Positions 1-54,265 of a DNA stretch of 64,000 nt are shown here, piece after piece; position 1 is the first letter of the stretch, and each line of letters starts with the position of its first letter. Made by a program: the position numbers and the translations under genes. The stretch comes from Dehalococcoidia bacterium (lineage in GTDB: Bacteria > Chloroflexota > Dehalococcoidia > Lucifugimonadales > QGNO01). The stretch covers positions 65,184 through 129,183 of the forward strand of contig OZ253484.1 of the NCBI GenBank assembly GCA_965261825.1. Direction: 5' to 3'. Under the pieces are notes generated by a model. It was not told the DNA's origin, did no database searches, and was given only the letters and a program-made list of their open reading frames with translations.

Positions 1-73
1 GCAGGGGGGTGAGGGAGTGGACCTTATACAAAGACTATGATACTGTACCGTCCAAGCAACTTGAGGTGGACCA

Positions 74-1273
74 ATGGAACTGACCGCCATATCCCTTTTT
101 ACGGGTGCTATGGGACTGGACTTGGGTTTCGAGCAAGAGGGGTTCGAAATCAAAGTAGCTGTAGAGAAAGACAGGACGGCGGTCGAGACGATAAAGGCAA
201 ATAGGCCCAATATTCCGGTAATCCAACAAGACATAAAGAACGTGCCTACGGAGGAAATCTTGTTGGAGGCCGGGCTAAGTGTTGGTGAAGCTACAGTAGT
301 GATAGGGGCGCCACCGTGTGAACCGTTTTCTACGGCGGGTAGAAGAAACGGTTTTTCCGACGATAGATCAAACGCAGTCGACGAGTTTATAAGGGTGATC
401 AGCGAAGCAAGACCGCGCTTCTTTGTCATGGAAGAGGTGGCTGGGTTTGTGCACTCGTCAAAGAAACACATCTCCTTTTACGAACGGGTAAAGAAAAAAG
501 AAGAAGACCTAGAAGAGGAAGAAAAGCTGGGGTCTGCCTTCCAGGAGATAATGGAGCACTTTCAAGGCTTGGGGTATGCGTTGAGCTATAACCCGGACAG
601 CCCCAAGTCTTCTATATTAAACGCTGCCGACTATGGAGTGCACCAGAAGCGAAAGAGGTTCATTCTGATAGGTTCGCGTGATGGTGGATCTGTGGGCCTT
701 CCATCTCCTGGATACGTTTCACAAGAGTCTGCGGAGGTGAAGCAAGGCTCCAAGAAAGCTTGGCGTACGCTGGCTGATGCGATTGGGGATGGCTTTGAAG
801 ACCCTATACCTGAACACAGACAATTCTCAAGAGTGTGGGCGCATTTCTTGGAGTATGTACCTGCAGGTGGATGTTGGAGGAACTTGCCTCCGGAAATGCA
901 TAAAGAAGCATTGGGCGGTGCTTATGATGACCCAGACAACGTAGAGACCAAAGGTCTAAAGGGTGGGAGGACGGGTTTTCTTAGAAAGTTAGCCTGGGAT
1001 CGGCCTGCTCCTACGTTGGTAGACTCTCCCACTTCAAAGTCCACATGCCTGTGCCATCCAAATAAAATGCGCCCTTTAACTGTAGGAGAATATTTGGCCC
1101 TTCAGGGATTTCCACTCTATTGGAAAGTTGTGGGGAAAACGACAGCCAAGTACCGCCTTATAGGCCAAGCAACACCTGTTGCACTGGCTGGTGCTGTTGC
1201 TAAAGCCATACTTGTCCACGAGATAGCGAGATCCCGGGCCAAAGAACCGCGCAAACCTGTAGCAATGACCTAA
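74..1273 (+). CDS. DNA (cytosine-5)-methyltransferase
   Basis: 399-aa ORF with ordered m5C-MTase motifs: I FTGAMGLDLGF, IV PPCEPFS, VI MEEV (ENV-like), VIII QKRKRFILIG, X GQATPV. GAGGTG lies 6 nt upstream of the ATG. Confidence 0.9.
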   Translation: MELTAISLFTGAMGLDLGFEQEGFEIKVAVEKDRTAVETIKANRPNIPVIQQDIKNVPTEEILLEAGLSVGEATVVIGAPPCEPFSTAGRRNGFSDDRSNAVDEFIRVISEARPRFFVMEEVAGFVHSSKKHISFYERVKKKEEDLEEEEKLGSAFQEIMEHFQGLGYALSYNPDSPKSSILNAADYGVHQKRKRFILIGSRDGGSVGLPSPGYVSQESAEVKQGSKKAWRTLADAIGDGFEDPIPEHRQFSRVWAHFLEYVPAGGCWRNLPPEMHKEALGGAYDDPDNVETKGLKGGRTGFLRKLAWDRPAPTLVDSPTSKSTCLCHPNKMRPLTVGEYLALQGFPLYWKVVGKTTAKYRLIGQATPVALAGAVAKAILVHEIARSRAKEPRKPVAMT

Positions 1274-1395: not shown

Positions 1396-2532
1396 ATGAC
1401 ACAGGTTCACGCACTTAAAATCACTCAGTCCGGGATCGGCCCAAAGGGAGAGACAGTCAACTTATATATAGGCGCGCTATCACTCGGTAAACTCAGGGAA
1501 CATGCAAAAGTCGACTATTGGAGTCCAGATAATGATCAGGGCTATCAACGTCCTCTAGTAGACAGGCGTCTTCGTGATGTCGCTAAGTACGTCCGCGAGG
1601 AGCAGGGAATATTACCGACATCTGTGCTCCTTGCCACACGGCCAGATGACTCTGTATCGATAGACTTCAAGCCGATGGATGCATCAGACGGAGTTGGGGA
1701 GTGGGGACTGCTTTCGATTCCAGACGGAACCATTCTGTGGGTTGTAGATGGTCAACACCGTCTCTACGGTATAAACCGAGCATACGAGAAGGATGACGCT
1801 GTACAGCTAGAATCCTACCCATTCCCCATCTCGATTATGGAGATGGTAGACCAGTACGATGAGATGAACCACTTCAATATCATTAATACCCGTCAAAGAA
1901 AAATGTCCACGGACATTGTTGACCGGCATTTGGTAATCCGACAGCAAAAGGAAGGTCTAAACCTTATTGCTTCCGGAGGGCAAAGCGAGAAGGAATATCA
2001 TATAGCCACCGCCACCAGAATCGTGGACATGCTAAACGATGCTCAGAGCCCTTGGTATCATCAGATTGCTATACCGGGTGTCCCAGGACGGGACAAAGGG
2101 CTTGTACGTCAACATGCGATGGTAGTTTCGATTGACCCAGTACTCAAGGACAATTGGGTAAGAGCGCAACAGCCTATGGAGGAGCACGTAGTCAAGATCC
2201 TCACGAACTACTGGAATGCCCTTGCAGAGGTATGGCCTGAAGCCTTTCAAGCACCAGGGGATCACAGAATACAGGCTACTGTTGGAATATACTCTCTCCA
2301 TTTGGTACTGCCTGCAATTATTCAGAGATGCATGGCTGAGCGCGACCTGTCTCAAGGAAAGATAAAAGACTTAATACAGAGTACCGGGATTCAGTCTTCA
2401 TTCTGGAATAAGAGTTTAGACAAGGGCGGAGACCCTCTTACATTAGGTACTGGAATGGCCTCCATTCGTGCTCTGGCTCATTACATAATTGGAGTACTCC
2501 CCAGTACTTCGTCGCAGCCAGTTAAGCTATAG
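1396..2532 (+). CDS. DGQHR-domain protein (DndB/DpdB-like, ParB/Srx-type fold)
   Basis: 378-aa ORF with literal VVDGQHRLYGI motif and downstream FNIINTRQRKM. AGGAGG RBS upstream of the ATG. Family call from motif memory only. Confidence 0.7.
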   Translation: MTQVHALKITQSGIGPKGETVNLYIGALSLGKLREHAKVDYWSPDNDQGYQRPLVDRRLRDVAKYVREEQGILPTSVLLATRPDDSVSIDFKPMDASDGVGEWGLLSIPDGTILWVVDGQHRLYGINRAYEKDDAVQLESYPFPISIMEMVDQYDEMNHFNIINTRQRKMSTDIVDRHLVIRQQKEGLNLIASGGQSEKEYHIATATRIVDMLNDAQSPWYHQIAIPGVPGRDKGLVRQHAMVVSIDPVLKDNWVRAQQPMEEHVVKILTNYWNALAEVWPEAFQAPGDHRIQATVGIYSLHLVLPAIIQRCMAERDLSQGKIKDLIQSTGIQSSFWNKSLDKGGDPLTLGTGMASIRALAHYIIGVLPSTSSQPVKL

Positions 2533-2534
2533 AA

Positions 2535-3431
2535 GTGGTTGAAGAGGTCATGGGCCACAAGAGGTTTGCCGTCCAGCAGGCTGTGCTCGGCTGGGCGACA
2601 AACCATCTCCGTGACTATCCCTGGCGCAAGAAGCTTGATAACCCGTATGCCATTATAGTGGCAGAGCTGTTGTTGAAGCGGACCACTGCTAAGGCTGCCT
2701 CAAGGATTTATGAGGAGTTTCTGGGTGAGTTTCCTTCTGTGGAGAAACTAGCTTCGGCTACAGAGAAGGAGATGGTTCAAGCCTTTTCTGGGGTGGGTCT
2801 GCAATGGCAACGAGCAAGGGCTACAAAAAAGCTGGCCGACTATTTGATGGAAGAAGAGGATGGACACATACCCTGCGATTTGGAACGCTTGCTAGCTGTA
2901 CCCGGTCTTGGCGAATACAGCGCTAGAGCTGTGCTGTCGTTTGGATGTGATAAGCCAGTAGCGGTAGTGGATGTCAATGTGGAAAGGGTCTACTCCAGGG
3001 TATTTCAAAAGACCTTGCCAGAGAAACCAACACGCAACTTTCTCCAGTCTTTTGCTGAACAGCTCCTTCCGGCAGACCAGCATAGAGAGTACAACTTTGG
3101 GCTTTTAGATTTAGGAGGTCTGATTTGCAGATACGTAGACCCGTTATGCGGTCAGTGTCCTCTTAACGACGTATGTGATTATTACAGTTTTCGTGGGCCT
3201 AAACGGATTAGGGAAAGACCAGCTGAGTACATCACTTCCGGACCAGGCTCAAAGATCCGTAAGTTACGCAGGGAAAAGGGGATAGGGTTGGTGAAGCTGG
3301 CCCAAACCTCGGGCGTTTCCAAGCTGACCATCATTAAGGCAGAGGCTGGGAGAACAAAGCCAACGCGCCGAACACTAGAGAAGCTAGCAGTCGTCCTTGG
3401 AGTGGATGTCGATACACTTCTCACCAGTTGA
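2535..3431 (+). CDS. HhH-GPD DNA glycosylase (Mig/MutY-like, 4Fe-4S) fused to a C-terminal XRE-type HTH
   Basis: HhH VPGLGEYSARAVL (no EndoIII-type Lys) followed by the Asp region VVDVNVERV. Cluster CX6CX2CX5C (CRYVDPLCGQCPLNDVC). C-terminal IRKLRREKGIGLVKLAQTSGVSKLTIIKAEAG looks like HTH_3. Start is GTG 2535 or ATG 2550, 2 nt after the DGQHR stop. Confidence 0.8.
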   Translation: MVEEVMGHKRFAVQQAVLGWATNHLRDYPWRKKLDNPYAIIVAELLLKRTTAKAASRIYEEFLGEFPSVEKLASATEKEMVQAFSGVGLQWQRARATKKLADYLMEEEDGHIPCDLERLLAVPGLGEYSARAVLSFGCDKPVAVVDVNVERVYSRVFQKTLPEKPTRNFLQSFAEQLLPADQHREYNFGLLDLGGLICRYVDPLCGQCPLNDVCDYYSFRGPKRIRERPAEYITSGPGSKIRKLRREKGIGLVKLAQTSGVSKLTIIKAEAGRTKPTRRTLEKLAVVLGVDVDTLLTS

Positions 3432-3934: not shown

Positions 3935-4494
3935 CTGGGATGCTTCGTCGGCGGGGGTGGATGAAGGCTGGGGTGTCTGACCGACTCCTCAGCATGACAG
4001 GGGGGGTGTCCTCACGTGGGCGATTGACCCCGCGTCGCCACCAGATTGCTTCGGGTTCCCTCGCAATGACGATGGGGGTGTGCGCGGGAATGGGAGCAAA
4101 AAGGAGTCGTGTCCAGGAACGGTTCACCCCCATCTCAATCTTCCCCCATCAAGGGGGAAGAGGTTATGCAGAGGTCTGTCTGCGCGGGAATGACGGTGGT
4201 GTGGGTGCGGTGGTCTGGGATGCTTCGTCGGCGGGGGTGGTTGAGGGCGAGGGGTGTGCAACCGACTCCTCAGCATGACAGGGGGGTGTCCTCACGTGGG
4301 CGATTGACCCCGCGCCGCCGCCAGATTGCTACGCTGCGCTCGCAATGACGATGGGGGGGGTGCGTGGAAATGGGAGCAAAAAGGAGTCGTGTCCAGGAAC
4401 GGTTCACCCCCATCTCAATCTTCCCCCGTCAAGGGGGAAGAGGTTATGCAGAGGTCTGTCTGCGCGGGAACGACGGTGGGTGTGGGTAGACGGG
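3935..4494. repeat. two tandem copies (period 280 bp) of a composite intergenic repeat
   Basis: CTGGGATGCTTCGTCGGCGGGGGTGG... restarts at 3935 and 4215. Both copies run through ...GCAGAGGTCTGTCTGCGCGGGAA(T/C)GACGGTGG with few substitutions. Confidence 0.85.
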
Positions 4495-6051: not shown

Positions 6052-7770
6052 CTAGTACTTGCGCTCCTGCGGTTGCCAGTTGGTAATGGTAACAGGGATG
6101 TTCTCCAATTTGGGGCCGTCCGCGGTGTGACGGGCGAGCTGGTGGACAAGCCAGGCATCGTCGTTTCGATCAGGGAAGTCGCGGCGAACGTGAGCGCCGC
6201 GGGACTCCTGGCGGGCGTAGGCGGAGTGTACGATGGTCTGGGCGATGTCCAGCATGAAATCAAGCTCCAGTGCGCCGATAAGTTCCACGTTGTAGACGCC
6301 GGTGGTGTCATGGACGTCGAGGTTTTGAATCCGTTCACGCAGGTCGGCGATCTCAGACATGGATTGCTGCAAGCCCTCCTTGGTGCGGAAGACCTCCGCG
6401 CCTCGTTCCATGGAGTCCTGGAGCTGGCGACGGAGGGTGGCGACTTGCTCTGTGCCTCTCTTGCCGCTGAGGAAGTGATCGCGGATGCGTTTTTCGTCGT
6501 GCTCGGCGGCGGGGGAGAGGTCGGCGGCGGAGTGAGGGGTTTCGAGTGCGTAGCTGGCGGCGGCGGCTCCGGCCCTGGCGCCGAATACGAGACATTCGGT
6601 GAGGGAATTGGATCCGAGACGGTTTGCGCCGTTGATGGTGACGCAGGCGTTTTCGCCGGCGGAGTAGAGGCCTTCCATGGGAGTCAGCCCGTCGTTATCG
6701 GTGTGGACGCCTCCCATCATGTAATGGAGCACGGGTCGCACGGGTATGGGTTGGGTGACGGGGTCTATGCCGACGTAGGTGCGGGCAAGCTCCAGAATGA
6801 AGGGCAGGCGCTCGTTGAGATGCTTTTCACCAAGATGGCGGAGGTCCAGGTGCACGTAGCCGTCCTTGGGATCGCCGTAGCCCAGGCCCTGCTCCAGCTC
6901 AGTAATGATAGCGCGGGAGATAATGTCTCTGGGGCCCATCTCCATGCGGTTGGGGATGTACTTTTCCAAGAAGCGCTCGCCGCTGGCATTGATCAGGTAT
7001 CCGCCTTCACCGCGGGCGGCTTCGGTGATGAGGATGCCGGTGTCTGGGAGGCCAGTGGGGTGGAACTGTACGAACTCCATGTCCTTCAGCGGCGCACCGG
7101 CGCGGTAGGCCAGCGTCATTCCGTCGCCGGTGCAGATGGCGCCATTGGTGGTGAAGGCGAAGACTCGACCGCCGCCGCCGGCGGTGAGGATGACGGACTT
7201 GGCCGTGATGAGGTGGAACTTGCCTGTGCTGATTTCAAGGGCAACGACACCCCTGGCTTTGCCATCGTCGACGACTATGGAGGTAACGAACCATTCGTCG
7301 TGACGCTTGATGGAGGGGTACTTGAGGGAGGTTTGGAAAAGGGTGTGCAGCATGTGGAAGCCGGTCTTATCGGAGGCGAAGACGGTGCGCTTGACACTCA
7401 TGCCGCCGAAGGCGCGAACGGCGACGTGGCCGTCCGGGTCGCGGCTCCAGGGACAGCCCCAGTGCTCCATCTGGATGATCTCGGCGGGGGCTTCCTTAAC
7501 GAAGAGCTCTACGGCATCCTGGTCGGCAAGGTAGTCCGCGCCGCGGATGGTGTCGGTGGCGTGCAGTTCAAAGTTGTCGTAGTCACGAAGGACGGCGGCT
7601 GCGCCGCCTTCCGCGGAGACGGTGTGACTGCGGACGGGGTAGACTTTGGATACGATGGCGATGTCCAGGGGCTTACCGGCGGATTCGGCGGTGTGCACCG
7701 CTTCAATGGCGGCTCTGAGACCAGCTGCGCCACCGCCAATGATCAGGATGTCGTGCTGTAAGGTTTCCAT
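6052..7770 (-). CDS. frdA: succinate dehydrogenase/fumarate reductase flavoprotein subunit
   Basis: 572 aa. FAD fold DILIIGGGAAGLRAA, covalent-FAD His region RSHTVSAEGG, plus HPTG and RGEGG motifs. Confidence 0.95.
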   Translation of the reverse strand: METLQHDILIIGGGAAGLRAAIEAVHTAESAGKPLDIAIVSKVYPVRSHTVSAEGGAAAVLRDYDNFELHATDTIRGADYLADQDAVELFVKEAPAEIIQMEHWGCPWSRDPDGHVAVRAFGGMSVKRTVFASDKTGFHMLHTLFQTSLKYPSIKRHDEWFVTSIVVDDGKARGVVALEISTGKFHLITAKSVILTAGGGGRVFAFTTNGAICTGDGMTLAYRAGAPLKDMEFVQFHPTGLPDTGILITEAARGEGGYLINASGERFLEKYIPNRMEMGPRDIISRAIITELEQGLGYGDPKDGYVHLDLRHLGEKHLNERLPFILELARTYVGIDPVTQPIPVRPVLHYMMGGVHTDNDGLTPMEGLYSAGENACVTINGANRLGSNSLTECLVFGARAGAAAASYALETPHSAADLSPAAEHDEKRIRDHFLSGKRGTEQVATLRRQLQDSMERGAEVFRTKEGLQQSMSEIADLRERIQNLDVHDTTGVYNVELIGALELDFMLDIAQTIVHSAYARQESRGAHVRRDFPDRNDDAWLVHQLARHTADGPKLENIPVTITNWQPQERKY

Positions 7771-7868
7771 GTCTTAGAGGTAGGAAAGTAACCGATACGA
7801 GCGGCATTCTACAATAAAACGGGGATTCGTGCATTGGTTCACTAATGTCATTTGCCGCTCGCCCACCG

Positions 7869-7927
7869 CCCCTGGGTTCCTGCCTCCGCAGGAATGACGG
7901 GGCAGGCTGCACGGGAACGACGGTGTG
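7869..7927. repeat. REP-type hairpins (family B)
   Basis: CCCCTGGGTTCCTGCCTCCGCAGGAATGACGG followed by GCAGGCTGCACGGGAACGACGGTGTGG. Same architecture as about 12 other intergenic sites. Confidence 0.7.
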
Positions 7928-8124
7928 GACCGTGGCTACACGGGGACAGGCGGCGTACGCTGGATAGCGTACGGTGTCTGGTATAGAATATCAAATGGGA
8001 TATACCGCCAGGCGAGCGCCAAGTAAGTAGCTTGAGAGGCTTCAATGGCGATGAGTGTTCGGCGCGCGGCCAACGGCGGTGTGTGTGCCACGCGCCAGGG
8101 CAGTCTGCAAATGGTAGGAGCGTG

Positions 8125-9384
8125 ATGATTACCTCGGTCCGGCTGGTCAACTTCAAGAGCTTCGCAGACGAAACACTGCGCGTGGGTCCCTTCACCGTGA
8201 TAGTGGGAGCCAACGCCAGCGGCAAGAGCAACGTCCGGGACGCCTTCCGCTTCCTGCACGGCATAGGCCGAGGCTACACTCTGGCGGAGATTCTGGGCGG
8301 TAAGTACGGCGAGGGTGGGTACAGAGAATGGTACGGCATACGCGGAGCTCCGGGGGAAATCAGTCGCTTCGTAAAAACGTTGGAACCCAAACTAAGCGAC
8401 TTCTCTGTCCAGATAGAGCTTGTCTCGGGAAAGCGGAGGATTTTCTACTCTATCGAGGTTCGATTCAACCTGAGAAGGCCAGATAGGTTCCGAGTTCGGG
8501 AAGAAGAGCTAAGAGTCGGATCCCAGGTCATATACAAGACATTAAGAGGATATAAGGGTTCGAAATTGGCAGTCCTCATGGGGGGAGATAGTGAGCGTCG
8601 AGTTATGCTCAGTCGGATCCAACCCGTGTTGACACAACGCTGGGGATCTCGCTTTTGGACTTCAAAGTACGAGCAATACGTTCGCGAAGTTTACTCAACG
8701 CTTGAGAGTATGCGATTTCTGGAGTTGGTTCCTGAGCGGATGCGGGAGCCCGCCTTCCCCGGAGCCGCGGTTTTGGGCGACAGCGGCGAAAATTTGCCAA
8801 CCGTGCTTGAGGCAATCTGCGCTGATTCCGCGCAAAGAGACGTACTCATATCGTGGGCGCAGGAGCTTACGCCTATGGACGTAAAGGACCTGCTGTTTCC
8901 CCGTGACCCCAGTGGAAAGGTACATCTCCAAATCATTGAGCGCAGTGGGCGCAAAGTATCGGCCTACAGCGCTTCAGACGGAACGATGCGTTTTCTCGGG
9001 ATGCTAGCCGCGCTGTTCAGCCCGGATCCGGCTAAGACTTACTTCTTTGAGGAGATAGACAACGGCATACACCCAAACCGTCTGTGGCTCCTGTTGGAAC
9101 TGATTGAACGGCAGAGCGCAAAGAACGGCATACAGGTCATCACCACCACACACTCCCCGGATATGCTGCATTTCATCGACGACACCACCTTTGAGAATAC
9201 GTCCATAACCTACCGCGACGAGAAATCCGCGGACTCCATAATCAGGCCTGTAGCGGAACTGCCAAATGCCAGGGAGTTGCGGAAGTCCCAAGGCCTAGGC
9301 AGGCTGCATACAAGCGGCTGGATGGAGACGGCCCTGGCCTTCACGGAAGGCGGGTATGACGAGGATTCAGAGGACGGAGAATGA
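8125..9384 (+). CDS. ABC/AAA_21-type ATPase (OLD/PARIS AriA-like)
   Basis: The real start is probably ATG 8125 (MITSVRLVNFKSF). Walker A GANASGKSN, Walker B-like YFFEEIDNGIHP, H-loop TTHSPDML. Confidence 0.8.
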   Translation: MITSVRLVNFKSFADETLRVGPFTVIVGANASGKSNVRDAFRFLHGIGRGYTLAEILGGKYGEGGYREWYGIRGAPGEISRFVKTLEPKLSDFSVQIELVSGKRRIFYSIEVRFNLRRPDRFRVREEELRVGSQVIYKTLRGYKGSKLAVLMGGDSERRVMLSRIQPVLTQRWGSRFWTSKYEQYVREVYSTLESMRFLELVPERMREPAFPGAAVLGDSGENLPTVLEAICADSAQRDVLISWAQELTPMDVKDLLFPRDPSGKVHLQIIERSGRKVSAYSASDGTMRFLGMLAALFSPDPAKTYFFEEIDNGIHPNRLWLLLELIERQSAKNGIQVITTTHSPDMLHFIDDTTFENTSITYRDEKSADSIIRPVAELPNARELRKSQGLGRLHTSGWMETALAFTEGGYDEDSEDGE

Positions 9385-9938: not shown

Positions 9939-10044
9939 TCGCGGAGAAAGCAGGGTTAGCATGGTAGGTTCGGTTCACGAACCGCCCCTAGAAGCCACCC
10001 ACCCGCCGGATTGCTTCGGTTACTGGCAATGACGGAGGTGTGGG

Positions 10045-10107
10045 GGATGCTTCGTCGGCGGGGGTGGTTAAGGGCTAAGGGGGTTTGACCGACTCCTCAG
10101 CATGACA
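10045..10107. repeat. REP family A element
   Basis: GGATGCTTCGTCGGCGGGGGTGG...GACCGACTCCTCAGCATGACA. Confidence 0.8.
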
Positions 10108-10163
10108 GTGGGGCTTGTCCTCTGTTGCAGAATGTGGGCGAAGGGGCGGTTCGAGAACCGCCC

Positions 10164-11483
10164 CTACAGAACGGGGAGGCGTTCCGTGAGGACGGCTACT
10201 AGTTCCGGAATGGGGACGCGGACCTGTTCCATGGTGTCGCGGTCGCGGATGGTAACGGCGTCGTCCTCTTCCACGGTCTGAAAATCTACGGTGACGCAGA
10301 TGGGGGTGCCGATCTCGTCCTGACGGCGGTAGCGGCGACCGATGCTCTGGGAATCGTCGTACTGGGCGACGAAGCGGTCGTTGACCATATCGAAGACCTC
10401 TCTTGCCCTGGGCACGAGCTTCTCGTTACGAGATAGGGGTAGGACGGCCACTTTGACGGGTGCGATGACGGGGTGCAGCTTGAGGACGACTCGCTGTTCC
10501 ATCTTGCCTTTACCGGTGGGGGCCTGTTCCTCTTTGTAGGCGTCGGCCAAGAAGGCAAGGAAGGGGCGGTCTACTCCTGCGGAAGGCTCGATGACGTAGG
10601 GGTGGTAGTGCTCTTGGGCGTCGTCGTCAAAGTAGGTGAGGTCAACGCCGCTGGCCTGTGAGTGCGCCTTGAGGTCGTAGTCGGTGCGGCTGGCGATTCC
10701 CTGGATTTCGCCCCAGCCCCAGGGGAACCGGTACTCGATGTCGTAAGTGGCCTTGGCGTAGTGGGCAAGCTCATCAGGGGCATGCTGACGGATACGCAGG
10801 TTGTCTTTGGAGATGCCTGCGCCGACGAACCAGTCGAGGCAGTCCTTTACCCACATGTCAAGCCACTCCTCGTCGGTGCCTGGCTTGACGAAGTATTCGA
10901 TCTCCATCTGCTCGAACTCACGGGTGCGGAAGATGAAGTTGCCCACGGTAATCTCGTTGCGGAACGCCTTGCCTATCTGCGCGATGCCGAAGGGCAGCTT
11001 CTTGCGCGTGGAGTTGAGGACGTTGAGGAAGTTGACGAAGATGCCCTGCGCGGTCTCCGGTCGGAGGTAGGTCTGAGAGGCGTCCTCCTCTACGGGGCCA
11101 AGGAAGGTCTTGAGCATGAGGTTGAACATGCGGGGGTCTGTGAAGGTACCGCCGCAGTCAGGGCAGGCGTCCGACTCCAACTGGTCGGCGCGGAAGCGAT
11201 GGTGACACTCCCTGCACTCGACCAGTGAATCAGCGAATCCGGCGGAAGTGTGGCCGGAGGCGTCCCAGACCTGGGGCGCCATGAGGATGGCGGCGTCGAG
11301 GCCGACCATGTCGGCGCGCTTGTGGACGAATGTGCGCCACCAGTGATCCTTGATGTTGCGTCGCATCTCGACGCCGAGGGGGCCGTAGTCGTAGGTGGAG
11401 GCGAGACCGCCGTAGATTTCGCTGGACTGGAACACGAAGCCGCGGCGCTTGGCGAGGGATACTATGGTATTGAGGTCTGTCAT
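10164..11483 (-). CDS. glyQS: glycine--tRNA ligase (dimeric class II type)
   Basis: From ATG 11481-11483: MTDLNTIVSLAKRRGFVFQSSEIYGGLASTYDYGPLGVEMRRNIKDHWW is a typical GlyRS N-terminus. The upstream 35 codons of the ORF are probably not translated. Confidence 0.9.
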   Translation of the reverse strand: MTDLNTIVSLAKRRGFVFQSSEIYGGLASTYDYGPLGVEMRRNIKDHWWRTFVHKRADMVGLDAAILMAPQVWDASGHTSAGFADSLVECRECHHRFRADQLESDACPDCGGTFTDPRMFNLMLKTFLGPVEEDASQTYLRPETAQGIFVNFLNVLNSTRKKLPFGIAQIGKAFRNEITVGNFIFRTREFEQMEIEYFVKPGTDEEWLDMWVKDCLDWFVGAGISKDNLRIRQHAPDELAHYAKATYDIEYRFPWGWGEIQGIASRTDYDLKAHSQASGVDLTYFDDDAQEHYHPYVIEPSAGVDRPFLAFLADAYKEEQAPTGKGKMEQRVVLKLHPVIAPVKVAVLPLSRNEKLVPRAREVFDMVNDRFVAQYDDSQSIGRRYRRQDEIGTPICVTVDFQTVEEDDAVTIRDRDTMEQVRVPIPELVAVLTERLPVL

Positions 11484-11595
11484 GTGCTCCTGGAACCGGT
11501 CAGGCGAGACTTCAAATAGGCTAACGGTTAATGGGGGATACGTAAAGGGCGTTGCTGGGCGGACGTGGGGGCATGGGCGTGCGGGCAACTACGGC

Positions 11596-11790
11596 CTGGA
11601 TGCTTCGTCGGCGGGGGCGGTTTTAGGGCGAACGGGGTTCAACCGACTCCTCATGCTTCGTCGGCGGTGGTGGTTTGACGTCGAAACGGGTCTAACCGAC
11701 TCCTCAGCATGACAAGCCGCCCTGCCCCTGGGTTCCCGTTCCCCAATCGTGGTTGGGGACAAGCTGCGCGGGAAAGACGGTGTGGGCATG
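11596..11790. repeat. composite REP array (family A, 1.5 copies, plus family B hairpin)
   Basis: CTGGATGCTTCGTCGGCGG...CTCCTCATGCTTCGTCGGCGG...CTCCTCAGCATGACA, then CCCCTGGGTTCCCG...GCGCGGGAAAGACGGTGTGGG. Confidence 0.8.
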
Positions 11791-11813: not shown

Positions 11814-12530
11814 TCAGCCTTGCGTTGCCGGGTTGGGAAGGGCGCTTCCTAGTGGGAGAAACCTGTACTCAGCCACGGTGCTCTGTTCCTCTAGAACACC
11901 GTCTTCGTAGCGGGATTCGCTACGGAGCAGCGGGGCATTCTCCACCACCTCTATCCTGCGCGTCTCTCCGTCATCATACTCACGTTCGAATATCAGGCTT
12001 GTCCTACCGTTGAGCGTCCCCCGCCCCTTGAACTCCCAGCCTGGCCTCTGAAGCGACAGCATGGCATCCCAATACGGACTCAACGTACCCTCAATATCAG
12101 AGAGGAACTCCGGCGGCAGAGGGAGAATCATCCCGGCCACAAGATCCGTGTGGGTCACGGTCCCGTCGTCATGAAGCTCCACATACCCCAACAGGTTACC
12201 CTCGAGGTCACGCACCGTTGAGGCCATCGCTACTCTCTGACCCTGTTCGTCCGCGACCATCCACGCCTCAACTATGGTGGTCTGGGGATGTGATCCACGC
12301 GATTCGAAAACCACGGGGTCCTTCTTGTATCTCACCGTCTTGAAATACAAAGGCCGTCCCTGGCGGATGCCTTCCAACAGCGCCTGCTTGTTCTGCTCTG
12401 CGGATGCCGCGATTTCGGGGGTAGTGGCCGGGTTGTTCCCACCCAACTGCGAGAGTCCTATCCAGGCAGCGGCGCCAAGGACCAGTATCAGCACTCCGGC
12501 TACTCCTAGTTGGGCTATTCTCGTCTTCAT
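11814..12530 (-). CDS. hypothetical membrane-anchored/secreted protein
   Basis: 238-aa ORF with N-terminal hydrophobic helix MKTRIAQLGVAGVLILVLGAAAWIG. No known motif. Confidence 0.5.
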   Translation of the reverse strand: MKTRIAQLGVAGVLILVLGAAAWIGLSQLGGNNPATTPEIAASAEQNKQALLEGIRQGRPLYFKTVRYKKDPVVFESRGSHPQTTIVEAWMVADEQGQRVAMASTVRDLEGNLLGYVELHDDGTVTHTDLVAGMILPLPPEFLSDIEGTLSPYWDAMLSLQRPGWEFKGRGTLNGRTSLIFEREYDDGETRRIEVVENAPLLRSESRYEDGVLEEQSTVAEYRFLPLGSALPNPATQG

Positions 12531-12638
12531 GATGAGAAAGTATCGTAAGAGTTACACCATGTAAAGGAGGGTGCTTGGGCATACGGGCATACGGGCATGC
12601 GAGCAGGGGGGCAAAGGGGGCAAGGGGGGAACTACGGC

Positions 12639-12702
12639 CTGGATGCTTCGTCGGCGGAGGTGGATGAAGGCTAAGGGGTTTGACCGACTCCTCAGCATGA
12701 CA
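12639..12702. repeat. REP family A element
   Basis: CTGGATGCTTCGTCGGCGGAGGTGGATGAAGGCTAAGGGGTTTGACCGACTCCTCAGCATGACA, preceded by a G-rich GGGCATACGGGCA tract. Confidence 0.8.
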
Positions 12703-12793
12703 GACTGCTCTGCATCGCCTCGCCGCTTCATGTTGACAGGGTATGGGCTGGTCACTAGGATGCGGGCAAATTGAATCAGGGAGGAGCCTCATA

Positions 12794-13615
12794 GTGACTA
12801 CAATTGACTATGCTCATCCGGAAATGCTAGTGGATACGGAGTGGCTGGCGTCGCATTTGGACGACCCCAACATGGTTATAGTGGACTGCGATCTTCCGGA
12901 CGCTTACAACCGGGCGCACATTCCGGGAGCGGTGAACCTGGGAGACAACCACTATATCAAGGGCGACGATGGTGTGAACGTGATGCCATTGGAGCAGGCG
13001 TCGGATTTCCTGGGCAATCTTGGCATTGGAGACGAAACTTTGGTGGTGGCCTACAGCGGCAGGTTTTCAATATACGCGGCGAGGCTGTGGTGGGTGCTGA
13101 GCTACTACGGGCACACAAAAGTGAAGGTGCTGAACGGGGGATGGCGAAAGTGGATGGGGGAGGGGCGCGCCATGACGGATAGGCCAAGCACCCCTGAGCC
13201 GAGGCGGTTCAGGCCAAAGGCGGATCCTTCTCTCATAGTGGAAGCCGGCGAGTTGAAGACGGCTATTGGCAAAGAGGGGACGATTATCTGGGATACAAGG
13301 TCAGCGGAGGAGTTCAGCGGGGAGAACAGCAGGGGCAACAAGTACAGCGGCCACATTCCAGGCGCGGCACACCTGGAATGGAGCGACGTTATGGACAGCG
13401 AATCGGGGGAGTTCAGGCCTGCGGATGAGATCAGGTCAATGCTGTCTGAGAAGGGGGTGACGCCTGAGCAGCAGGTGTACACGCACTGACAGGCGGGCAT
13501 CCGTGCGGCGCACGGAGTGTTCACCCTGAAGCTGCTGGGGTACGAGAATGCGGCGAACTACGATGCGTCTTTCGCGGAGTGGGCTAACGAGGAGGGGTAT
13601 CCGCTGGAGAGGTAG
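12794..13615 (+). CDS. two-domain rhodanese (thiosulfate/3-mercaptopyruvate sulfurtransferase-like) with in-frame TGA at the catalytic Cys position
   Basis: GTG 12794 after GGAGGAG. Typical N-terminus LVDTEWLASHLDDPNMVIVDC. The ORF stops at TGA 13487-13489 (..VYTH*), but the same frame continues QAGIRAAHGVFTLKLLGYENAANYDASFAEWANEEGYPLER to TAG 13613-13615. Together this restores the active-site loop C/U-QAGIRA. Confidence 0.7.
13500..13516 (+). promoter_or_regulatory. hairpin 11 nt downstream of the in-frame TGA (candidate bacterial SECIS)
   Basis: TCCGTGC-GGC-GCACGGA is a perfect 7-bp stem. The G-rich apical loop starts 18 nt after the UGA. Confidence 0.35.
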
Positions 13616-13727: not shown

Positions 13728-14750
13728 GTGACGCTCACTAATTCTGTGTCTCTAGTAAGCCAGGATGTTGTTATGGGAAACTCGTACCGTGCCGTACCAC
13801 CATTGATGGTAGCGGCGGTAGTCACGGTCTTGTTATTGGGAATCGCGGGCTGCCGATCAAACTTCCGCGAAACTATTAGTCCAACTGCGGATATACCTAC
13901 GGAGACGGTTGTATCAGTTGCCTCTAGTCCAACCGCGGATATACCTGCGGAGACGGTTGTGCCAAATAATTCTTCTCCGGACGGTGGAGGCTATGCAGGG
14001 GAAGTAGACGTTGTTTTGGGCAGGGCGGTGCTACAGCCTAACGGGTGGGTGACTGTATTCTATGTTGCGAGGAATTCAGATGAGGAGTTCGAAGGATCCA
14101 TCCTAATCTACGGTGCGGGAATGGAAACCTCGGGTGGCGGCTCGCGGCTCACTGAAGGCTATGGCACGTTGCTGAACTGGCCACCTCTTACTTTGGGATG
14201 GCTGACGTTTCTAGTGGCCGATGCCTCCCCAGGGAGTTTCAAAGTATCAGTGAAAAGTGTTCAAGTCGACGGCAGTCACTTGACGGGGTCATGGCAGTTG
14301 GCGCAGCTCAGCGGCTTCGAGGCCAGGCGCGATGTGTCGGAACCAATTGTCATAGAATCAGGACTGTGCGTCAGTGCAGGCAGTGTGGCAATCGGCTTTC
14401 ACGAACACGCCTGTGCGACAGAGTTCGTTGATCCACACAGTTTGCGCGAGAAGGAGGACAATTCGGTCTCCACGCCTGTCACACCACGTCCCACGCCTAC
14501 ACCAAGGCAAATCTCTACTCGACCACCTGCTACTTCCACTCCTCCAGACACTACATTGCACGGTGGAGATATCAGTTTGACATTCGACCTCTGCACCCCT
14601 TGGCACTTCTTGGTGCAAGTGGGAATTGATCGATCGTCTACACCGATTGTGGGTTCCACCGGACCTTCAACAAGCATTCGATGTGTGCTTCCAGAGGATG
14701 AAGCCATCAGTTGGACGACTCTTGAACTTCTGGAACAACCTAGACTTTAG
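13728..14750 (+). CDS. hypothetical lipoprotein
   Basis: 340-aa ORF with lipobox-like LLLGIAGC. Internal direct repeat SPTADIP(T/A)ETVV. Pro/Thr-rich linker. AT-richer than its neighbours. Start uncertain (13728 or ATG 13773). Confidence 0.5.
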   Translation: MTLTNSVSLVSQDVVMGNSYRAVPPLMVAAVVTVLLLGIAGCRSNFRETISPTADIPTETVVSVASSPTADIPAETVVPNNSSPDGGGYAGEVDVVLGRAVLQPNGWVTVFYVARNSDEEFEGSILIYGAGMETSGGGSRLTEGYGTLLNWPPLTLGWLTFLVADASPGSFKVSVKSVQVDGSHLTGSWQLAQLSGFEARRDVSEPIVIESGLCVSAGSVAIGFHEHACATEFVDPHSLREKEDNSVSTPVTPRPTPTPRQISTRPPATSTPPDTTLHGGDISLTFDLCTPWHFLVQVGIDRSSTPIVGSTGPSTSIRCVLPEDEAISWTTLELLEQPRL

Positions 14751-14790: not shown

Positions 14791-15426
14791 TTGGCTTCAA
14801 GTGAACTAATAGCGAAGAAGATAGTGGTTGGCTCCATGTCGGAGAACACCTATCTCGTAGGTTCGAAAGAGTCGGGAGAGTGCATACTGATCGATCCCGG
14901 GGCGCAGGCTGACCTGATACTGCAAGAAGTGGAAGAGGCCGGGCTCAGAGTGGTGCTGATGGTGAATACGCACGGCCACGGAGACCACAACGGGGCGATA
15001 AAGGAGATCAAGGAGAGGACAGGAGCGGAGTTCAGGATTCACCAAGCAGACGTGCGGGTCATGGCGGCGAGCATGTCGTGGGCGCCGATGATGATAGCGG
15101 GCTACCAGATGCCGCCACCGCCTGACGGCTTTCTAAATGACGGCGATGAACTGCGTGTGGGGGGAGTAATGCTGATGGTGCTGGAGACTCCGGGTCATAC
15201 GCCGGGGTCGGTGTGCTTTTATGGGGAAGGGATGGTGTTTACCGGCGACACGCTGTTCAAAGGAAGCATCGGCCGCTTCGATATGGACGGTGGTAGCGGG
15301 CCTCAACTGCTTGGGAGCATCGAGTCACGGCTGCTAACGCTGCCTGACGATACGGTGGTGATGCCAGGTCACGGCGAGGGATCTACGATAGGCGATGAGA
15401 GGCGGAATAACCCGTTCTTGCGGTAG
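14791..15426 (+). CDS. MBL-fold metallo-hydrolase (glyoxalase II-like)
   Basis: KKIVVGSMSENTYLVG first strand and HGHGDHNGA (HxHxDH) motif. The start is not an ATG in the conserved region: TTG 14791 or GTG 14761 is plausible, and ATG 14836 would clip strand 1. Confidence 0.8.
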   Translation: MASSELIAKKIVVGSMSENTYLVGSKESGECILIDPGAQADLILQEVEEAGLRVVLMVNTHGHGDHNGAIKEIKERTGAEFRIHQADVRVMAASMSWAPMMIAGYQMPPPPDGFLNDGDELRVGGVMLMVLETPGHTPGSVCFYGEGMVFTGDTLFKGSIGRFDMDGGSGPQLLGSIESRLLTLPDDTVVMPGHGEGSTIGDERRNNPFLR

Positions 15427-23281: not shown

Positions 23282-24929
23282 GCTGTCGGGAACGCTGAAG
23301 TCCGCTGAGGTGCCCCCGCTCTCGCCGGTGCCGGCTATGGGTTATGGTCACCGACCGCTGGGGGTCTGCGCTCAGCGTCACCGTCACGTCCACCGAGTCT
23401 CCCTCGTCCGCCGAGTAGGTGGCCGCGCCGAATGTGACCGTCACCGCCGGGTCGTCATCGATGATGGTGACAGTGGTCGTGCGGTTGGTGGATGCCAGGG
23501 TCACGCCCTGGGGCAGGTCCGACCCAAAGGCCAGCCGGACTCTCTCCCCGTGGTCGGCGACGGTGTCCTCGGTAACGCTGAAGGAGAAGGTCTGCGTCGT
23601 GTCCCCGCTGTTGAAGGTCACGCTGGTGGGGTCCGTGTAGTCATCCGTGGACGTGGCGCCTCCCTGGCCGGTGGCGGTTACGGGTATGGTCACCGACCGC
23701 TGCGGGTCCGCGCTCAGCGTCAGCGTCACGTCCACCGAGTTGCCCTCGGTGACGGAGTAGGTTGTTGAGTCAAATTCGACGGTAACCGCCGGATCGTCAT
23801 CGATGAAGGTCACCGTGATCTCACCGTTGGAGCCGGCGCTCACCCCCGGCGGCAGGTCCGACCCGATAGCTAGCTTGACGCCCTCTCCCCGTTCGACGAG
23901 AGTGTCTTGGTAGATGTCAAATGTGATGTTCTTGGACGTGTCTGTGGCGCTGAAGGTCAAACTGTAGGATGCAGCAGCGTTGTGGTCTCCCCGAGTGCCG
24001 CCGCCCTGGCCAGTGACGGTTATTGGAATGGTTACCGGGCGCATCGGGGCTTCGCTCAGATTCACGGTCACGTTCCCACGCCCACCCTCGGCAACCTCGG
24101 ACGTGGCCACGGAAAAGCTGACGGTGACCGCCGGGTCGTCGTCGATGATGGTGACGGTGGTGGTGGTCGTGCCGCTCGCCGTTACGCCCGCCGGCAGGTC
24201 TCCGAACCCCAGCAGGACACTCTCGCCGTGGTCTTCGTCCGTGTCCTGTAGGGCGGCGAATCGGAATTCCGCTTCCGTCTCATCTTCGTGGATGTTCCCT
24301 GCTTCGCGGAATGTGTAATCCGCCGCCTCGGCCCCGCCCTGATGCGTCGTCGTAAAGGGAATGCGGACGCTGCGCTCCGGGTCCGCGCTCAGCTTTACAA
24401 CAATAGCTATACCGTCTTCTCCCTCGTCCACCGAATAGGTAGCGGCGCCGAAGCTGACCGTGACATTCGGGTCATCGTCGTCGGTGATCGAAACGGTGCT
24501 CTCCGCCGTGGTGCCCTCCGTTACGCCCGCCGGGAGCGTGCCGAAGCTGAGCTTCACCTTGTCCTCGTCATCGTCAGCAGTGTCCGCGGTCGCGGTGAAG
24601 GTAAACGTTTTCTCCGTGTCGCCGCTGGCGAAAGTGACGTTGGCCGGCACACCCGAATAGTCGCTGTTTGTTGCGCCGCCCTCGTTGGTCTTCGTGATCG
24701 GGATGACCACTTCACGCTCGGGATCCGCGCTCAGCGTGACTGTCACCTCGACCTTGTGCTCTTCCTCATCCATCGTCGTGTCATCGTCGGTTTCCGCGAC
24801 GGTGTACGTGCTCTGCTCGAATTCGACGGTGACCGCAACCGGGGTCTGCGCCTGCGCGGGCAGCGTAAGGGTCAGGACGTACAGGAGGGCTAGCCCCAAC
24901 CCAAAGGACAATAGTGTGGAACGGACCAA
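23268..24929 (-). CDS. Calx-beta repeat segment of the large surface protein (with signal peptide)
   Basis: Signal peptide LALLYVLTLTLPAQAQ, then 5-6 Calx-beta-like units (VTVSFGAATYSVDEGE...V.LSADPERSV.IP). The last unit breaks frame near 23335 and continues in the 21149..23281 ORF. Confidence 0.75.
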   Translation of the reverse strand: MVRSTLLSFGLGLALLYVLTLTLPAQAQTPVAVTVEFEQSTYTVAETDDDTTMDEEEHKVEVTVTLSADPEREVVIPITKTNEGGATNSDYSGVPANVTFASGDTEKTFTFTATADTADDDEDKVKLSFGTLPAGVTEGTTAESTVSITDDDDPNVTVSFGAATYSVDEGEDGIAIVVKLSADPERSVRIPFTTTHQGGAEAADYTFREAGNIHEDETEAEFRFAALQDTDEDHGESVLLGFGDLPAGVTASGTTTTTVTIIDDDPAVTVSFSVATSEVAEGGRGNVTVNLSEAPMRPVTIPITVTGQGGGTRGDHNAAASYSLTFSATDTSKNITFDIYQDTLVERGEGVKLAIGSDLPPGVSAGSNGEITVTFIDDDPAVTVEFDSTTYSVTEGNSVDVTLTLSADPQRSVTIPVTATGQGGATSTDDYTDPTSVTFNSGDTTQTFSFSVTEDTVADHGERVRLAFGSDLPQGVTLASTNRTTTVTIIDDDPAVTVTFGAATYSADEGDSVDVTVTLSADPQRSVTITHSRHRRERGHLSGLQRSRQRDLR

Positions 24930-29939: not shown

Positions 29940-31798
29940 CAACGGATGGTGCCGGGGAATTGAACGACTACCAGAACAACACCATACGCAACCTCGCTAT
30001 CATAGCCCACGTTGACCACGGCAAGACTACCCTGGTGGACGCGCTACTGAAGCAGGGCCAGGTCTTCCAGTCCCACCAACAAGTGGGCTCCTTAATCATG
30101 GACACCAATCCTCTGGAGCGGGAACGCGGCATCACAATCCTCGCCAAGAATGCCTCGGTCTACTACGGGGACGTGAGGATTAACATCATCGATACGCCGG
30201 GCCACGCTGACTTCAGCGGCGAGGTGGAACGCGTCATGAACATGGCCGATGGCTGTCTGCTATTGGTGGACGCCGTAGACGGGCCCATGCCCCAGACTAC
30301 CTACGTGCTGCGCCAGGCCCTCCAGCAGAACGTCACCCCCATGGTAGTCATCAACAAGATAGACAGGCCCGAGGCCCGGGTGGCAGAAGTAGTCGAGATG
30401 GTCCAGGACCTGTTCTTGGAACTGGCTACGGATGCGAAGCAACTGGATTTCCCGGTGCTTTATGCATCGGCCAGGCAGGGTTACGCTACCTCGGTTCTGG
30501 ACGCTCCAAGGCCGGACATGCAACCCCTCTTCCAAGCGATCTTGGATTCGGTGCCTCCTCCCAAAGGAGACCCCTCTGCCCCGCTCCAAATGCTGGTTGC
30601 CGCGCTGGACTACGACAACTACCTGGGACAGGTGGCCGTGGGCCGGATCACCAATGGCACCCTCAGGCAGCGTGACCACGTGACTTTGTTATGCCGCGAC
30701 GCCGAGCCCACCATCCACAACCTGGAGCACATATTTGTATTCCGCGGAATGGAGCGAGTGGAAGTACCCGAAGCCCAGGCCGGGGACATTGTGGCGGTGA
30801 CCGGTCCTGAGGGCGTGTCAATAGGCGACACCATAGCCTCTCCTGAAAACCCGGAGGTCCTGCCGGCTATCAACATCAGCGAACCGACGGTACGGATGAC
30901 ATTCGGGGTCAACACGTCCCCCTTGATGGGCAGGGAGGGCACCCACTGCACTTCCCGAAATCTCCACGAACGGCTGATGAGAGAGTTGCGGACCAACGTC
31001 AGCTTGAGGGTAGAGGCCACTCCCAGCCCCGACGTGTTTGTGGTTGCCGGACGTGGAGAACTACACCTGTCCATCCTAGTCGAGACCATGCGCCGTGAAC
31101 AGTTCGAATTTCAGGTGTCCCGTCCCGCTCCCGTGACCAAAGTGATCGACGGCAATACGTACGAACCCTACGAGATATTGAATGTCAGCGCCCGTGACGA
31201 GTACGTTGGCGTACTGACCGAATACTTGTCGACTCACCTGGCCCAACTCAGGGACATGCGGTACGATGAGAACGGCTATGTCCACATGGAATACAAGATA
31301 CCCACCCGCGGGCTGATCGGATTCAACGCTTTCTTCCTCCGCACCACCAGGGGTGACGGAGTCAAGAACAGCATCTTCACCTCCTACGAGCCAATGGGGA
31401 GTGATATAAGAGCCGAACGCGGCGGCGTACTCGTGGCATCGGAGGGCGGTGTCGCCGTAACCTACGGGCTGCTAAATGCCCAGGGCAGGGGCACCACTTT
31501 CATAGACCCTGGCACGATAGTCTACGAAGGTATGATCGTCGGCTCCCACCACCGCGATGGCGACATCGAAATCAACGTCTGCAAGGAGAAGAAGCTGACC
31601 AATATGCGCTCTTCAACGGCCGACGTGACCAGACGATTAAACGCCACTGCCAGGTTGAGCCTGGAGGAGGCCATGACGTTCATCTCTGACGACGAACTGG
31701 TGGAGATCACTCCACACAGCTTGCGCCTTCGTAAGATGGAACTCTCGGCTCTAGACCGGAAGCGCCAACGCCGGGACGGGGCTCGCGCCCGAGATTAG
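29936..31798 (+). CDS. typA: translational GTPase TypA/BipA
   Basis: [34 protein letters not shown]. Length and C-terminal domain are typical of BipA. TTG start overlapping the helicase stop; the exact start is uncertain. Confidence 0.9.
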
Positions 31799-46857: not shown

Positions 46858-47059
46858 GCGGTCCGCCTTCCTGCTCGCAACAGTGGCAATGTGGAATGAA
46901 ATGTCCCAGTACGGATGTTAGATAACGTATTACTGTTCATTCAACAAACACAATAGTCATCTTGCAACCACATCCACAATCTTATCACTCAGAGACATAT
47001 CATCCAAAGGTGGTTCTGATTGACATCCCATCTGAGGTATGCTCAAGGTGACCCGCAGG

Positions 47060-47337
47060 CCCGCTCACTCCTTTCGGCTGTGCTCAGGGTAAACTTAAAG
47101 CTCAGGGTGAGCGGGGGTGCGCGATGCTCAGGGTGAGCGGAAGTCCATACCCCACCACTCCTGGATTCCCGTCTTCACGGGAATGACGGTGTGGGGTGCC
47201 CGCTCACTCCTTTCGGCTGTGCTCAGGGTAAACTTAAAGCTCAGGGTGGGCGGGGGTGCGCGATGCTCAGGGTGAGCGGAAGTCCATACCCCACCACTCC
47301 TGGATTCCCGTCTTCACGGGAATGACGGTGTGGGGAG
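47060..47337. repeat. two tandem copies (period 139 bp) of a composite REP unit
   Basis: CCCGCTCACTCCTTTCGGCTGTGCTCAGGGTAAACTTAAAGCTCAGGGTGAGCGGGGG...CCTGGATTCCCGTCTTCACGGGAATGACGGTGTGGGG restarts at 47060 and 47199. Confidence 0.85.
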
Positions 47338-47340
47338 TGG

Positions 47341-47616
47341 CTAGATGAACAGCGGGCCAAAGACAAGGGATACTATAGCCATGAGCTTTATCAGGATATT
47401 GAGGGACGGTCCGCTGGTGTCCTTGAACGGGTCGCCTACGGTATCACCGACCACGGCGGCGTGGTGAGTATCCGAGTCCTTGCCGCCGAAGTTCCCCAGT
47501 TCTATGTATTTCTTGGCGTTGTCCCAAGCCCTCCCGGCATTGGCCATGGTGATAGCGAGGAGGAATCCGGCGGAGATGGCTCCTATGAGCAGGCCGACCA
47601 GGGCCTCAGCGCCCAT
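47341..47616 (-). pseudogene. orphan 3' fragment of hppA (last 91 codons)
   Basis: Differs at 6 of 91 residues from the C-terminus of the full hppA at 49128..51170. Has no upstream coding continuation. Confidence 0.85.
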
Positions 47617-49027: not shown

Positions 49028-49127
49028 ACATGGGTTATGTCGCCACCTCACCAGCCTTGGCAACAGCGCATCCCGCTGGTACGGTCCTGGATTCCCGTCG
49101 GCACGGGAATGACGGTGTGGGGAGTGG

Positions 49128-54160: not shown

Positions 54161-54265
54161 TTGGCCAGAAAGACCGCAGTGCAGGATGCCACCAGTGGGC
54201 CCTGCTCCTTACGGCGACGGGGCTTTCCCAGGACAGGGTGCCTTAGTTGGTATGAGGTTCCTTTT

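Follow-up and report, generated by a model that had tools for sequence, protein, structure and literature searches.

Does a TGA codon that falls in frame at the catalytic position of a bacterial rhodanese gene terminate translation there, or could it encode selenocysteine (Sec)? The question is raised by a locus in a 64,000-nucleotide stretch of DNA from a Dehalococcoidia bacterium (contig OZ253484.1 of assembly GCA_965261825.1, positions 65,184 to 129,183), hereafter called the window. Here a reading frame starting with GTG at 12794 runs through 231 sense codons to ...QQVYTH, meets the TGA and then continues for 41 further sense codons, encoding the peptide QAGIRAAHGVFTLKLLGYENAANYDASFAEWANEEGYPLER, before a TAG is reached. 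A preliminary description of this DNA had proposed the TGA as a candidate Sec codon followed by a hairpin resembling a bacterial SECIS (Sec insertion sequence), and all elements of the frame lie in the sequence where that description had placed them. Our analysis, which works from sequence comparisons, leads us to the view that the gene very probably encodes a tandem-domain rhodanese having Sec as its catalytic nucleophile, with decoding via a SECIS element in the coding region. Positions of the features discussed are collected in Table 1.

When the TGA is read as a residue, a product of 273 amino acids including Sec232 is obtained, in which Pfam recognizes two Rhodanese domains (E 1.6e-35). 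In tandem rhodaneses the N-terminal domain is the non-catalytic one. The GTG start agrees with the N-termini of homologues, which begin at the equivalent residue (MTTTGYAHPEM). The solved rhodanese structures 1UAR, 8K55, 3AAX and 3HWI align end to end with the product, with E-values of 1e-45 (1UAR) to 1e-38, and the alignments, that to 1UAR among them, cover residues 5-271. The column of the TGA is occupied by the rhodanese-loop Cys of Thermus thermophilus 1UAR ('vvyCRIAERSSH') and of 8K55, so that the earlier placing of the TGA at the catalytic Cys codon of a rhodanese is borne out.

Whether relatives would show TGC or TGT at this codon had been named beforehand as a point on which the Sec proposal could fail. 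A DNA scan taking one genome per GTDB species yielded 80 best-matching loci, all of them from Dehalococcoidia, Chloroflexota or SAR202 metagenome-assembled genomes (MAGs), and the catalytic codon is TGA in 79 of these and TGT in only one. A larger set, collected with the pattern U-Q-[AG]-G-[ILV]-R-[AS] and including paralogues and a few metagenome contigs, has TGA at 95 of its 101 sites and neither TAA nor TAG at any. The motif U-Q-[AG]-G occurs in each of the 95 TGA genes; Q-[AG]-G belonged to the pattern by which they were collected. Counted another way, the same TGA stands at the same codon in 91 of 92 related genes, the window gene among them. The true stops of these genes are TAG in 49 cases, TAA in 24 and TGA in 19, TAA and TAG together making up 79%. 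TGA therefore serves as an ordinary stop too, ending these 19 genes as well as the DEAD-box helicase gene of the window, and it is not reassigned genome-wide. As the TGA of the catalytic codon is conserved across species and never exchanged for TAA or TAG, neither an error of sequencing, nor a pseudogene confined to one strain, nor an ordinary stop is a tenable explanation for it.

The protein databases show the other side of the same pattern. A search with the read-through product gave, among the 120 best matches, 43 of at least 57% identity, every one of them 231-239 residues long and covering 83-85% of the query; these short homologues stop at ...VYT[HYQ], directly before the catalytic codon. 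The full-length homologues among the same 120 matches (265-309 residues) are all at most 53% identical. Catalytic Cys/Sec pairs, a second expectation of the preliminary description, are present: the 22 full-length homologues that were read all have Cys at the catalytic position, in the context ...[YH]CQ[AG]G[IV]RAA... (for example CQGGIRAAH).

Of the 80 species only one, L064, has a Cys-form orthologue, which has its TGT at 10688 and keeps the gene order glycine-tRNA ligase (6830-8125), rhodanese, metallo-β-lactamase (MBL)-fold gene (12184-12807). It is without the family hairpin, the codons in question being Arg CGG, Ala GCT, Ala GCT and His CAT. Such a Sec/Cys switch in situ lends itself to dating and to enzyme comparison. 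In at least 11 loci a second tandem-domain rhodanese paralogue, also with TGA at its catalytic codon, is found about 1 kb upstream (up to about 2 kb in L017). The TGA codons of these paralogues lie at 9741 in L008, 9134 in L009, 9135 in L012, 9758 in L013, 9744 in L015, 1508 in L017, 9756 in L018, 9744 in L020, 9753 in L028, 9728 in L075 and 9790 in L077. In the upstream copies the motif is AY-U-QAGLRA, the C-terminus is acidic and longer, and the CCGUGC-GGC-GCACGG hairpin recurs; in the window the rhodanese gene is present only once.

The codons beyond the TGA behave as coding sequence. Between 40 and 47 post-TGA codons are in frame in all 92 genes, and the rhodanese motif NYD.S..EW.N is kept. 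Over 40 of these codons, the ratio of nonsynonymous to synonymous substitution rates (dN/dS, by the Nei-Gojobori method) is 0.20, 0.06, 0.30 and 0.26 when the window is compared with L001, L002, L003 and L004, respectively. Upstream values for L003 and L004 are meaningless, since indels shift those stretches out of register. Purifying selection on the 41 downstream codons, the absence of which would have counted against the Sec proposal, is thus present, with dN/dS of 0.06-0.30.

Directly downstream of the TGA, the sequence can form the hairpin reported earlier, which is exact in the sequence: a perfect 7-bp stem beginning at the 11th nucleotide after the UGA and closed by a GGC loop. In the consensus published for bacterial SECIS elements, the apical loop, 3-9 nt long, is carried on an upper stem of 4-16 bp, at least one G is found in the first two loop positions (G, then G or U), 16-37 nt separate the UGA from the loop, and the minimum free energy (MFE) is -7.5 kcal/mol or lower (PMC13188914). 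The window hairpin, with its GGC loop, 7-bp stem, 17 nt between UGA and loop and -9.9 kcal/mol, falls within the consensus on all four counts, so that the claim that its position lies in the bacterial SECIS range holds. It can be extended to a stem-loop of 39 nt with 16 bp in three helical segments and an MFE of -19.5 kcal/mol (z = -2.36; equally stable folds in 7 of 200 shuffles), of which the upper helix alone is conserved across the family.

The frequency of such hairpins was compared with a recoding control, in which the peptides of the TGA genes were rewritten in 9,500 synonymous versions following the family's own codon usage. Using our own strict implementation of the PMC13188914 model, in which only contiguous stems are allowed, 88 of the 95 TGA genes pass, against 7.4% of the recodings and one of six close Cys-form genes. 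The high pass rate of the TGA genes stems from the near fixation, at about 90%, of the stem-forming codons CGT/GCG/GCG. The U+5 Arg codon is CGT in 87 of the 95 genes, although just 8% of the Arg codons in the rest of these genes are CGT. For the Ala residues at U+6 and U+7, GCG is used in about 90% of cases, compared with a share of 27% in other parts of the genes. For the U+5 Arg, the Cys forms have CGG, CGC, AGG or AGA. Synonymous divergence is halved near the UGA, being 0.32 in codons 1-10 and 0.62 in codons 11-24.

The pairing itself is also maintained. Among 85 distinct sequences, 86% of the cells of the stem are paired, compared with 18-66% in control slides. At stem pair 19/25 a compensatory change from G-C to U-A is seen in five sequences (L038, L041, L044, L066 and L078) and, because the stem overlaps the R-A-A-H codons, this change comes at the cost of Ala to Ser and His to Asn replacements. 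Where the core hairpin is missing, in L007, L023 and L048, a replacement, CGUGCUG-GUCA-CAGCACG, is found at 19 nt and fits the model, as do the 8-bp stems found 25 nt after the UGA, with loops GUG, GUU or GUC, in genes of the SAR202 type such as those of L030, L051, L055 and L067. Loop variants in the family comprise GGG, GUCA, GUG and GUU, and the main hairpin spacings are 17, 19 or 25 nt. Together these observations show that the hairpin is maintained by RNA-level selection on synonymous sites, as judged from the pattern of codon choice and pairing.

Several points weigh against the Sec interpretation. RNAalifold gave no consensus structure on the 85-sequence alignment, for which reason the case for a SECIS element is built on the control recodings and on pairs counted explicitly. 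The majority of the stem pairs do not vary and hence carry no information on covariation. For the DNA control with Cys forms only six close genes were usable, which makes it small, the metagenome scan made for it having returned mostly distant CRIGERS-type rhodaneses. Reviews list the family as predicted. Finally, searches of the 64-kb window and of the 20-kb loci from the closest relatives (L001-L003) revealed neither tRNA-Sec nor selA, selB or selD.

This last point deserves some detail. ARAGORN and Rfam found no tRNA and no RNA family in the whole window, and tblastn, with Escherichia coli queries, gave no credible match to SelA, SelB or SelD in the window or in 1.7 Mb of loci. The only tblastn match in the window, at 29993-30448, was rejected as selA-selB because it falls within a TypA/BipA gene adjoining a DEAD-box helicase gene. 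SelD-like matches in L038 and L041 resemble a ThiL-type kinase, a judgement made by eye from the L038 translation. A strict scan of the window for CxxU/UxxC motifs accompanied by a SECIS element produced no further candidate, and a broader scan for TGA interruptions was too noisy at 59% GC. The Sec trait of the host genome, with SelA, SelB and SelD, is therefore inferred, as is the actual incorporation of selenium.

For the clade, in contrast, the trait is documented. In BSepDB, two Dehalococcoidia MAGs, with 49 and 46 selenoprotein genes, rank in the top ten of bacteria for the number of such genes (PMC13326102). Downstream of the L043 Sec-rhodanese, at a distance of 2 kb, there is a tRNA-Sec with an anticodon UCA according to ARAGORN and a score of 70.8 bits to Rfam RF01852 (threshold 47). 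An ARAGORN tRNA-SeC call (anticodon tca) at 20-114 (+) of L044 was discounted, as the Rfam tRNA-Sec model finds nothing there at E <= 1; it is either false or a tRNA-Sec-like species of the unusual kind known from Chloroflexi and other phyla, for instance the 8/4 type of Chloroflexi (PMC5389517). L028, a SAR202 MAG with two Sec-rhodaneses, carries at 2291-3289 (+) a gene of the GrdB family (Pfam GRDB, 45.8 bits), that is, glycine/sarcosine/betaine reductase selenoprotein B, with TGA at 2981 in the context GTT-U-PRCH and an 8-bp hairpin with a GGC loop 18 nt after the TGA. With it, that MAG contains members of two known selenoprotein families.

It could be argued that the UGA is recoded to a standard amino acid, either by a tRNA-Sec-like tRNA charged with Cys or by near-cognate tRNA-Trp or tRNA-Cys during read-through stimulated by the hairpin. 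The inserted amino acid is not identifiable from sequence alone, selA and selD went undetected in the window and the fetched loci, and unusual tRNA-Sec-like species are reported, as just mentioned. Nevertheless, L064 and the distant homologues show that TGT or TGC can encode Cys directly, and such recoding offers no rationale for keeping a UGA and a costly hairpin in 79 species. The site is that of the catalytic nucleophile, making this a classic Sec/Cys pair, the L043 tRNA scores as a canonical tRNA-Sec and the abundance of selenoproteins in Dehalococcoidia MAGs is on record. We therefore consider recoding to a standard residue very unlikely.

A genuine stop, giving a 231-residue product that lacks the catalytic loop, perhaps with occasional regulatory read-through and with the downstream sequence conserved for some other reason, is what gene callers and NCBI assume (as in MBI4200147.1, of 233 residues), and TGA is indeed a normal stop in these genomes. 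Yet TAA and TAG, so prevalent among the true stops of the same genes, appear at none of the 95 sites; the 41 downstream codons are in frame and under purifying selection, with rhodanese motifs intact; the truncated protein would lack both the catalytic residue and a part of the domain that is seen in solved structures; and a separate downstream peptide would have neither a start codon nor a ribosome-binding site that is conserved. An ordinary stop is accordingly very improbable. That a pseudogene or a sequencing or assembly error turned a Cys codon, TGC or TGT, into TGA borders on the inconceivable, even though a single C/T-to-A change would suffice and indel-type interruptions had been reported elsewhere in the window, because the same TGA recurs in 79 of the 80 species genomes fetched, which were assembled independently of one another and include both short-read MAGs and complete chromosomes, and in further metagenome contigs, accompanied by a co-evolving hairpin.

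The Sec interpretation put forward in the preliminary description is thus supported by the TGA of the relatives, the Cys/Sec pairs, downstream purifying selection and the fit to the SECIS consensus. On this interpretation the UGA at 13487-13489 would be decoded as Sec, with the stem-loop that directly follows it in the mRNA (core 13500-13516, loop GGC) acting as a bacterial SECIS element, and translation would continue for 41 codons beyond the UGA, thereby completing the catalytic domain. The enzyme would be expected to shuttle sulfane sulfur from a donor to an acceptor via a covalent intermediate on residue 232, which would presumably be a selenenyl-sulfide, or Se-persulfide, rather than a Cys-persulfide.

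The Sec-rhodanese could also be imagined as more than a sulfurtransferase of raised reactivity, namely as a dedicated chalcogen relay, for example as a Se-S or perselenide carrier feeding selenium to selenophosphate synthetase in the marine Dehalococcoidia, which are unusually rich in selenoproteins. The idea comes from the occurrence of the Sec form in 79 of the 80 best-matching species, from its frequent tandem duplication and from a SECIS element kept so strictly that its compensatory changes entail the replacement of two active-site helix residues (Ala to Ser, His to Asn). The evidence gathered is neutral towards such a function, which we think improbable.

Table 1. Features of the Sec-rhodanese locus and its neighbours; coordinates are those of the window.
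Feature	Position	Strand	Basis or remark
Coding sequence, two-domain rhodanese-type sulfurtransferase	12794..13615	+	Translation; TAG stop at 13613-13615 included
Shine-Dalgarno-like sequence GGGAGGAG	12779..12786	+	Read from sequence; 7 nt 5' of GTG start
N-terminal rhodanese domain, residues 15-121	12836..13156	+	Best Pfam stretch
In-frame TGA, proposed Sec codon, residue 232, catalytic Cys position	13487..13489	+	Alignment to 1UAR and 8K55; cross-species TGA
Active-site loop U-Q-A-G-I-R-A (UxxG motif)	13487..13507	+	Translation
41 post-UGA codons, C-terminal part of catalytic rhodanese domain	13490..13612	+	Alignment to 1UAR C-terminus
Core hairpin of putative SECIS, UCCGUGC-GGC-GCACGGA	13500..13516	+	Stem 13500-13506 with 13510-13516, loop 13507-13509
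Extended SECIS-like stem-loop, 39 nt, 16 bp in three helical segments	13490..13528	+	Folding
Glycine-tRNA ligase	10164-11588	-	Upstream neighbour
Small hypothetical gene	11814-12530	-	Between glycine-tRNA ligase and rhodanese
Hypothetical gene	13728-14750	+	Downstream neighbour of rhodanese
MBL-fold gene	14791-15426	+	Follows hypothetical gene 13728-14750

The neighbourhood of the gene (Table 1) recurs in part among the relatives. The glycine-tRNA ligase gene adjoins the rhodanese gene in L001-L003, L011, L026 and L064, and an MBL gene is placed directly 3' of the rhodanese gene in L005, L011 and L026 and about 1.4 kb downstream in L064. The MBL-fold gene of the window resembles hydroxyacylglutathione hydrolase (GloB) and the sulfur dioxygenase Blh but scores below all curated cut-offs. 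It may form a functional pair with the rhodanese for persulfide metabolism, and a link of the locus to persulfide or thiosulfate metabolism is plausible in view of this neighbour.

The window also contains repeats. One is a dispersed intergenic repeat of about 70-157 nt, with the core TGGATGCTTCGTCGGCGG...GACCGACTCCTCAGCATGACAG and self-complementary ends, which looks like an element of the REP (repetitive extragenic palindromic) or MITE (miniature inverted-repeat transposable element) type. It is present in at least nine copies, among them those at 3937-4004, 4217-4286, 10044-10113, 11575-11738, 12592-12748, 51268-51581 and 54265-54332; one copy ends about 45 nt before the rhodanese start and two flank the small hypothetical gene at 11814-12530. 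Direct repeats, in tandem or close to one another, are found at 39890-40723, within the open reading frame (ORF) 39053-40858, at 23340-24172, at 47059-47335, at 47298-47597 and 49085-49384, and at 61892-62124 and 62866-63094. These repeats of the window include three 282-nt units inside a 601-residue ORF, a 342-nt period repeated three times, a 300-nt segment duplicated 1.8 kb apart with 95% identity, and repeats of 138-154 nt near 47.1 kb and 62-63 kb.

The practical value of the present results lies in annotation. No concept is changed by them, since selenocysteine rhodaneses and selenoprotein-rich Dehalococcoidia have both been documented already. Public gene calls, including those of NCBI, truncate the family at the Sec codon (231-239 residues; matches P0001-P0054), MBI4200147.1 (P0022) and the 43 short proteins among the best 120 database matches being cut in this way. 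The window gene and hundreds of orthologues are consequently deposited as proteins of about 231 residues without a catalytic residue. With this truncation, and with no NCBIfam sulfurtransferase model reaching its cut-off for the window protein, inventories of sulfur metabolism in SAR202 and Dehalococcoidia therefore miscount the family. Beyond annotation, the family provides a further, well-controlled case of a Sec/Cys pair, along with a well-documented natural series of Sec/Cys forms and SECIS variants. The SECIS element constrains both the synonymous codons and the amino acid sequence of the active-site helix across at least 79 species, and RNA-level selection on it is cleanly demonstrated by the cross-species data.

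How does the window protein compare with rhodaneses already known? Within Dehalococcoidia and Chloroflexota, Cys-form rhodaneses such as P0042, P0083 and P0103 are 46-53% identical to it over their full length and share with it the loop C-Q-[AG]-G-[IV]-R-A-A-H and the C-terminal NYD.S..EW.N, but they have TGT or TGC in place of TGA and are without the CCGUGC-GGC-GCACGG hairpin. The tandem rhodaneses of known structure (1UAR, 3HWI, 3HZU, 3AAX, 1E0C and 1RHD) have, judging by sequence, the same two-domain fold (E 1e-45 to 1e-31), with the catalytic residue in the same alignment column but as Cys. Of these, 3HWI, 3HZU and 3AAX are Mycobacterium proteins of SseA/CysA type, 1E0C is Azotobacter vinelandii RhdA and 1RHD is bovine rhodanese. 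Their active-site loops differ from UQAGIRA and include CRIGERS, CQTHHRS and CRKGVTA; those of 1UAR and 8K55 were read in the alignment, that of 1UAR being CRIAERS. The active-site loop is CRKGVTA in thiosulfate sulfurtransferases (TST) and CG[ST]GVTA in 3-mercaptopyruvate sulfurtransferases (MST). Membership of the classical TST or MST/SseA subfamilies was rejected on account of the loop UQAGIRA and of the best NCBIfam match, SseA/3-mercaptopyruvate sulfurtransferase (NF008557), which reaches 116 bits where its cut-off requires 250.

As to the RNA element, the stem-loop resembles the SECIS elements of E. coli fdhF/fdnG type and the bSECISearch consensus in lying in the coding region immediately after the UGA and in having a small loop that begins with G. 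It differs from that of fdhF in that its GGC triloop on a GC-rich stem of 6-7 bp is shorter and in that no bulged U, a feature of the fdhF SECIS, is evident. As a SECIS element it would bind SelB and direct Sec insertion.

Sec is also known from other rhodaneses, namely Geobacter form 1 (UxxS), COG0607/PspE, the LYCAU form 3 (NF041203, CxU) and the TsoB form 5. They likewise have Sec in or next to the rhodanese catalytic loop but are mostly single-domain or fusion proteins and have other Sec motifs, and assignment to the LYCAU type was rejected at 37 bits against the NF041203 cut-off of 115. The closest counterpart is an older one. A 'Rhodanese-related sulfurtransferase, COG2897' was among 15 new selenoprotein families that Zhang, Fomenko & Gladyshev described in 2005 from the Sargasso Sea metagenome, with three sequences and a predicted SECIS shown for AACY01016424 (PMC1088965). 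A 2022 review keeps the family as COG2897 (SseA), with MQG53192.1 as its representative (PMC9312934), and a 2026 review has it as 'form 4' (PF00581, motif UxxG, representative MCY3690685.1; PMC13188914). The window protein shares with this form the tandem architecture of SseA, a UGA (Sec) codon in place of that for the catalytic Cys, the UxxG motif (as U-Q-A-G), a downstream bacterial SECIS with a small G-containing loop, and relatives from marine and other uncultured-bacterial metagenomes. Compared by these described features, the two show no difference in kind, and the window gene is an unannotated new member of the COG2897 Sec-rhodanese family. What has changed is the known extent of the family: against the three sequences of 2005, the Sec form is now seen in 79 of the 80 Dehalococcoidia and Chloroflexota species genomes fetched, often with tandem paralogues.

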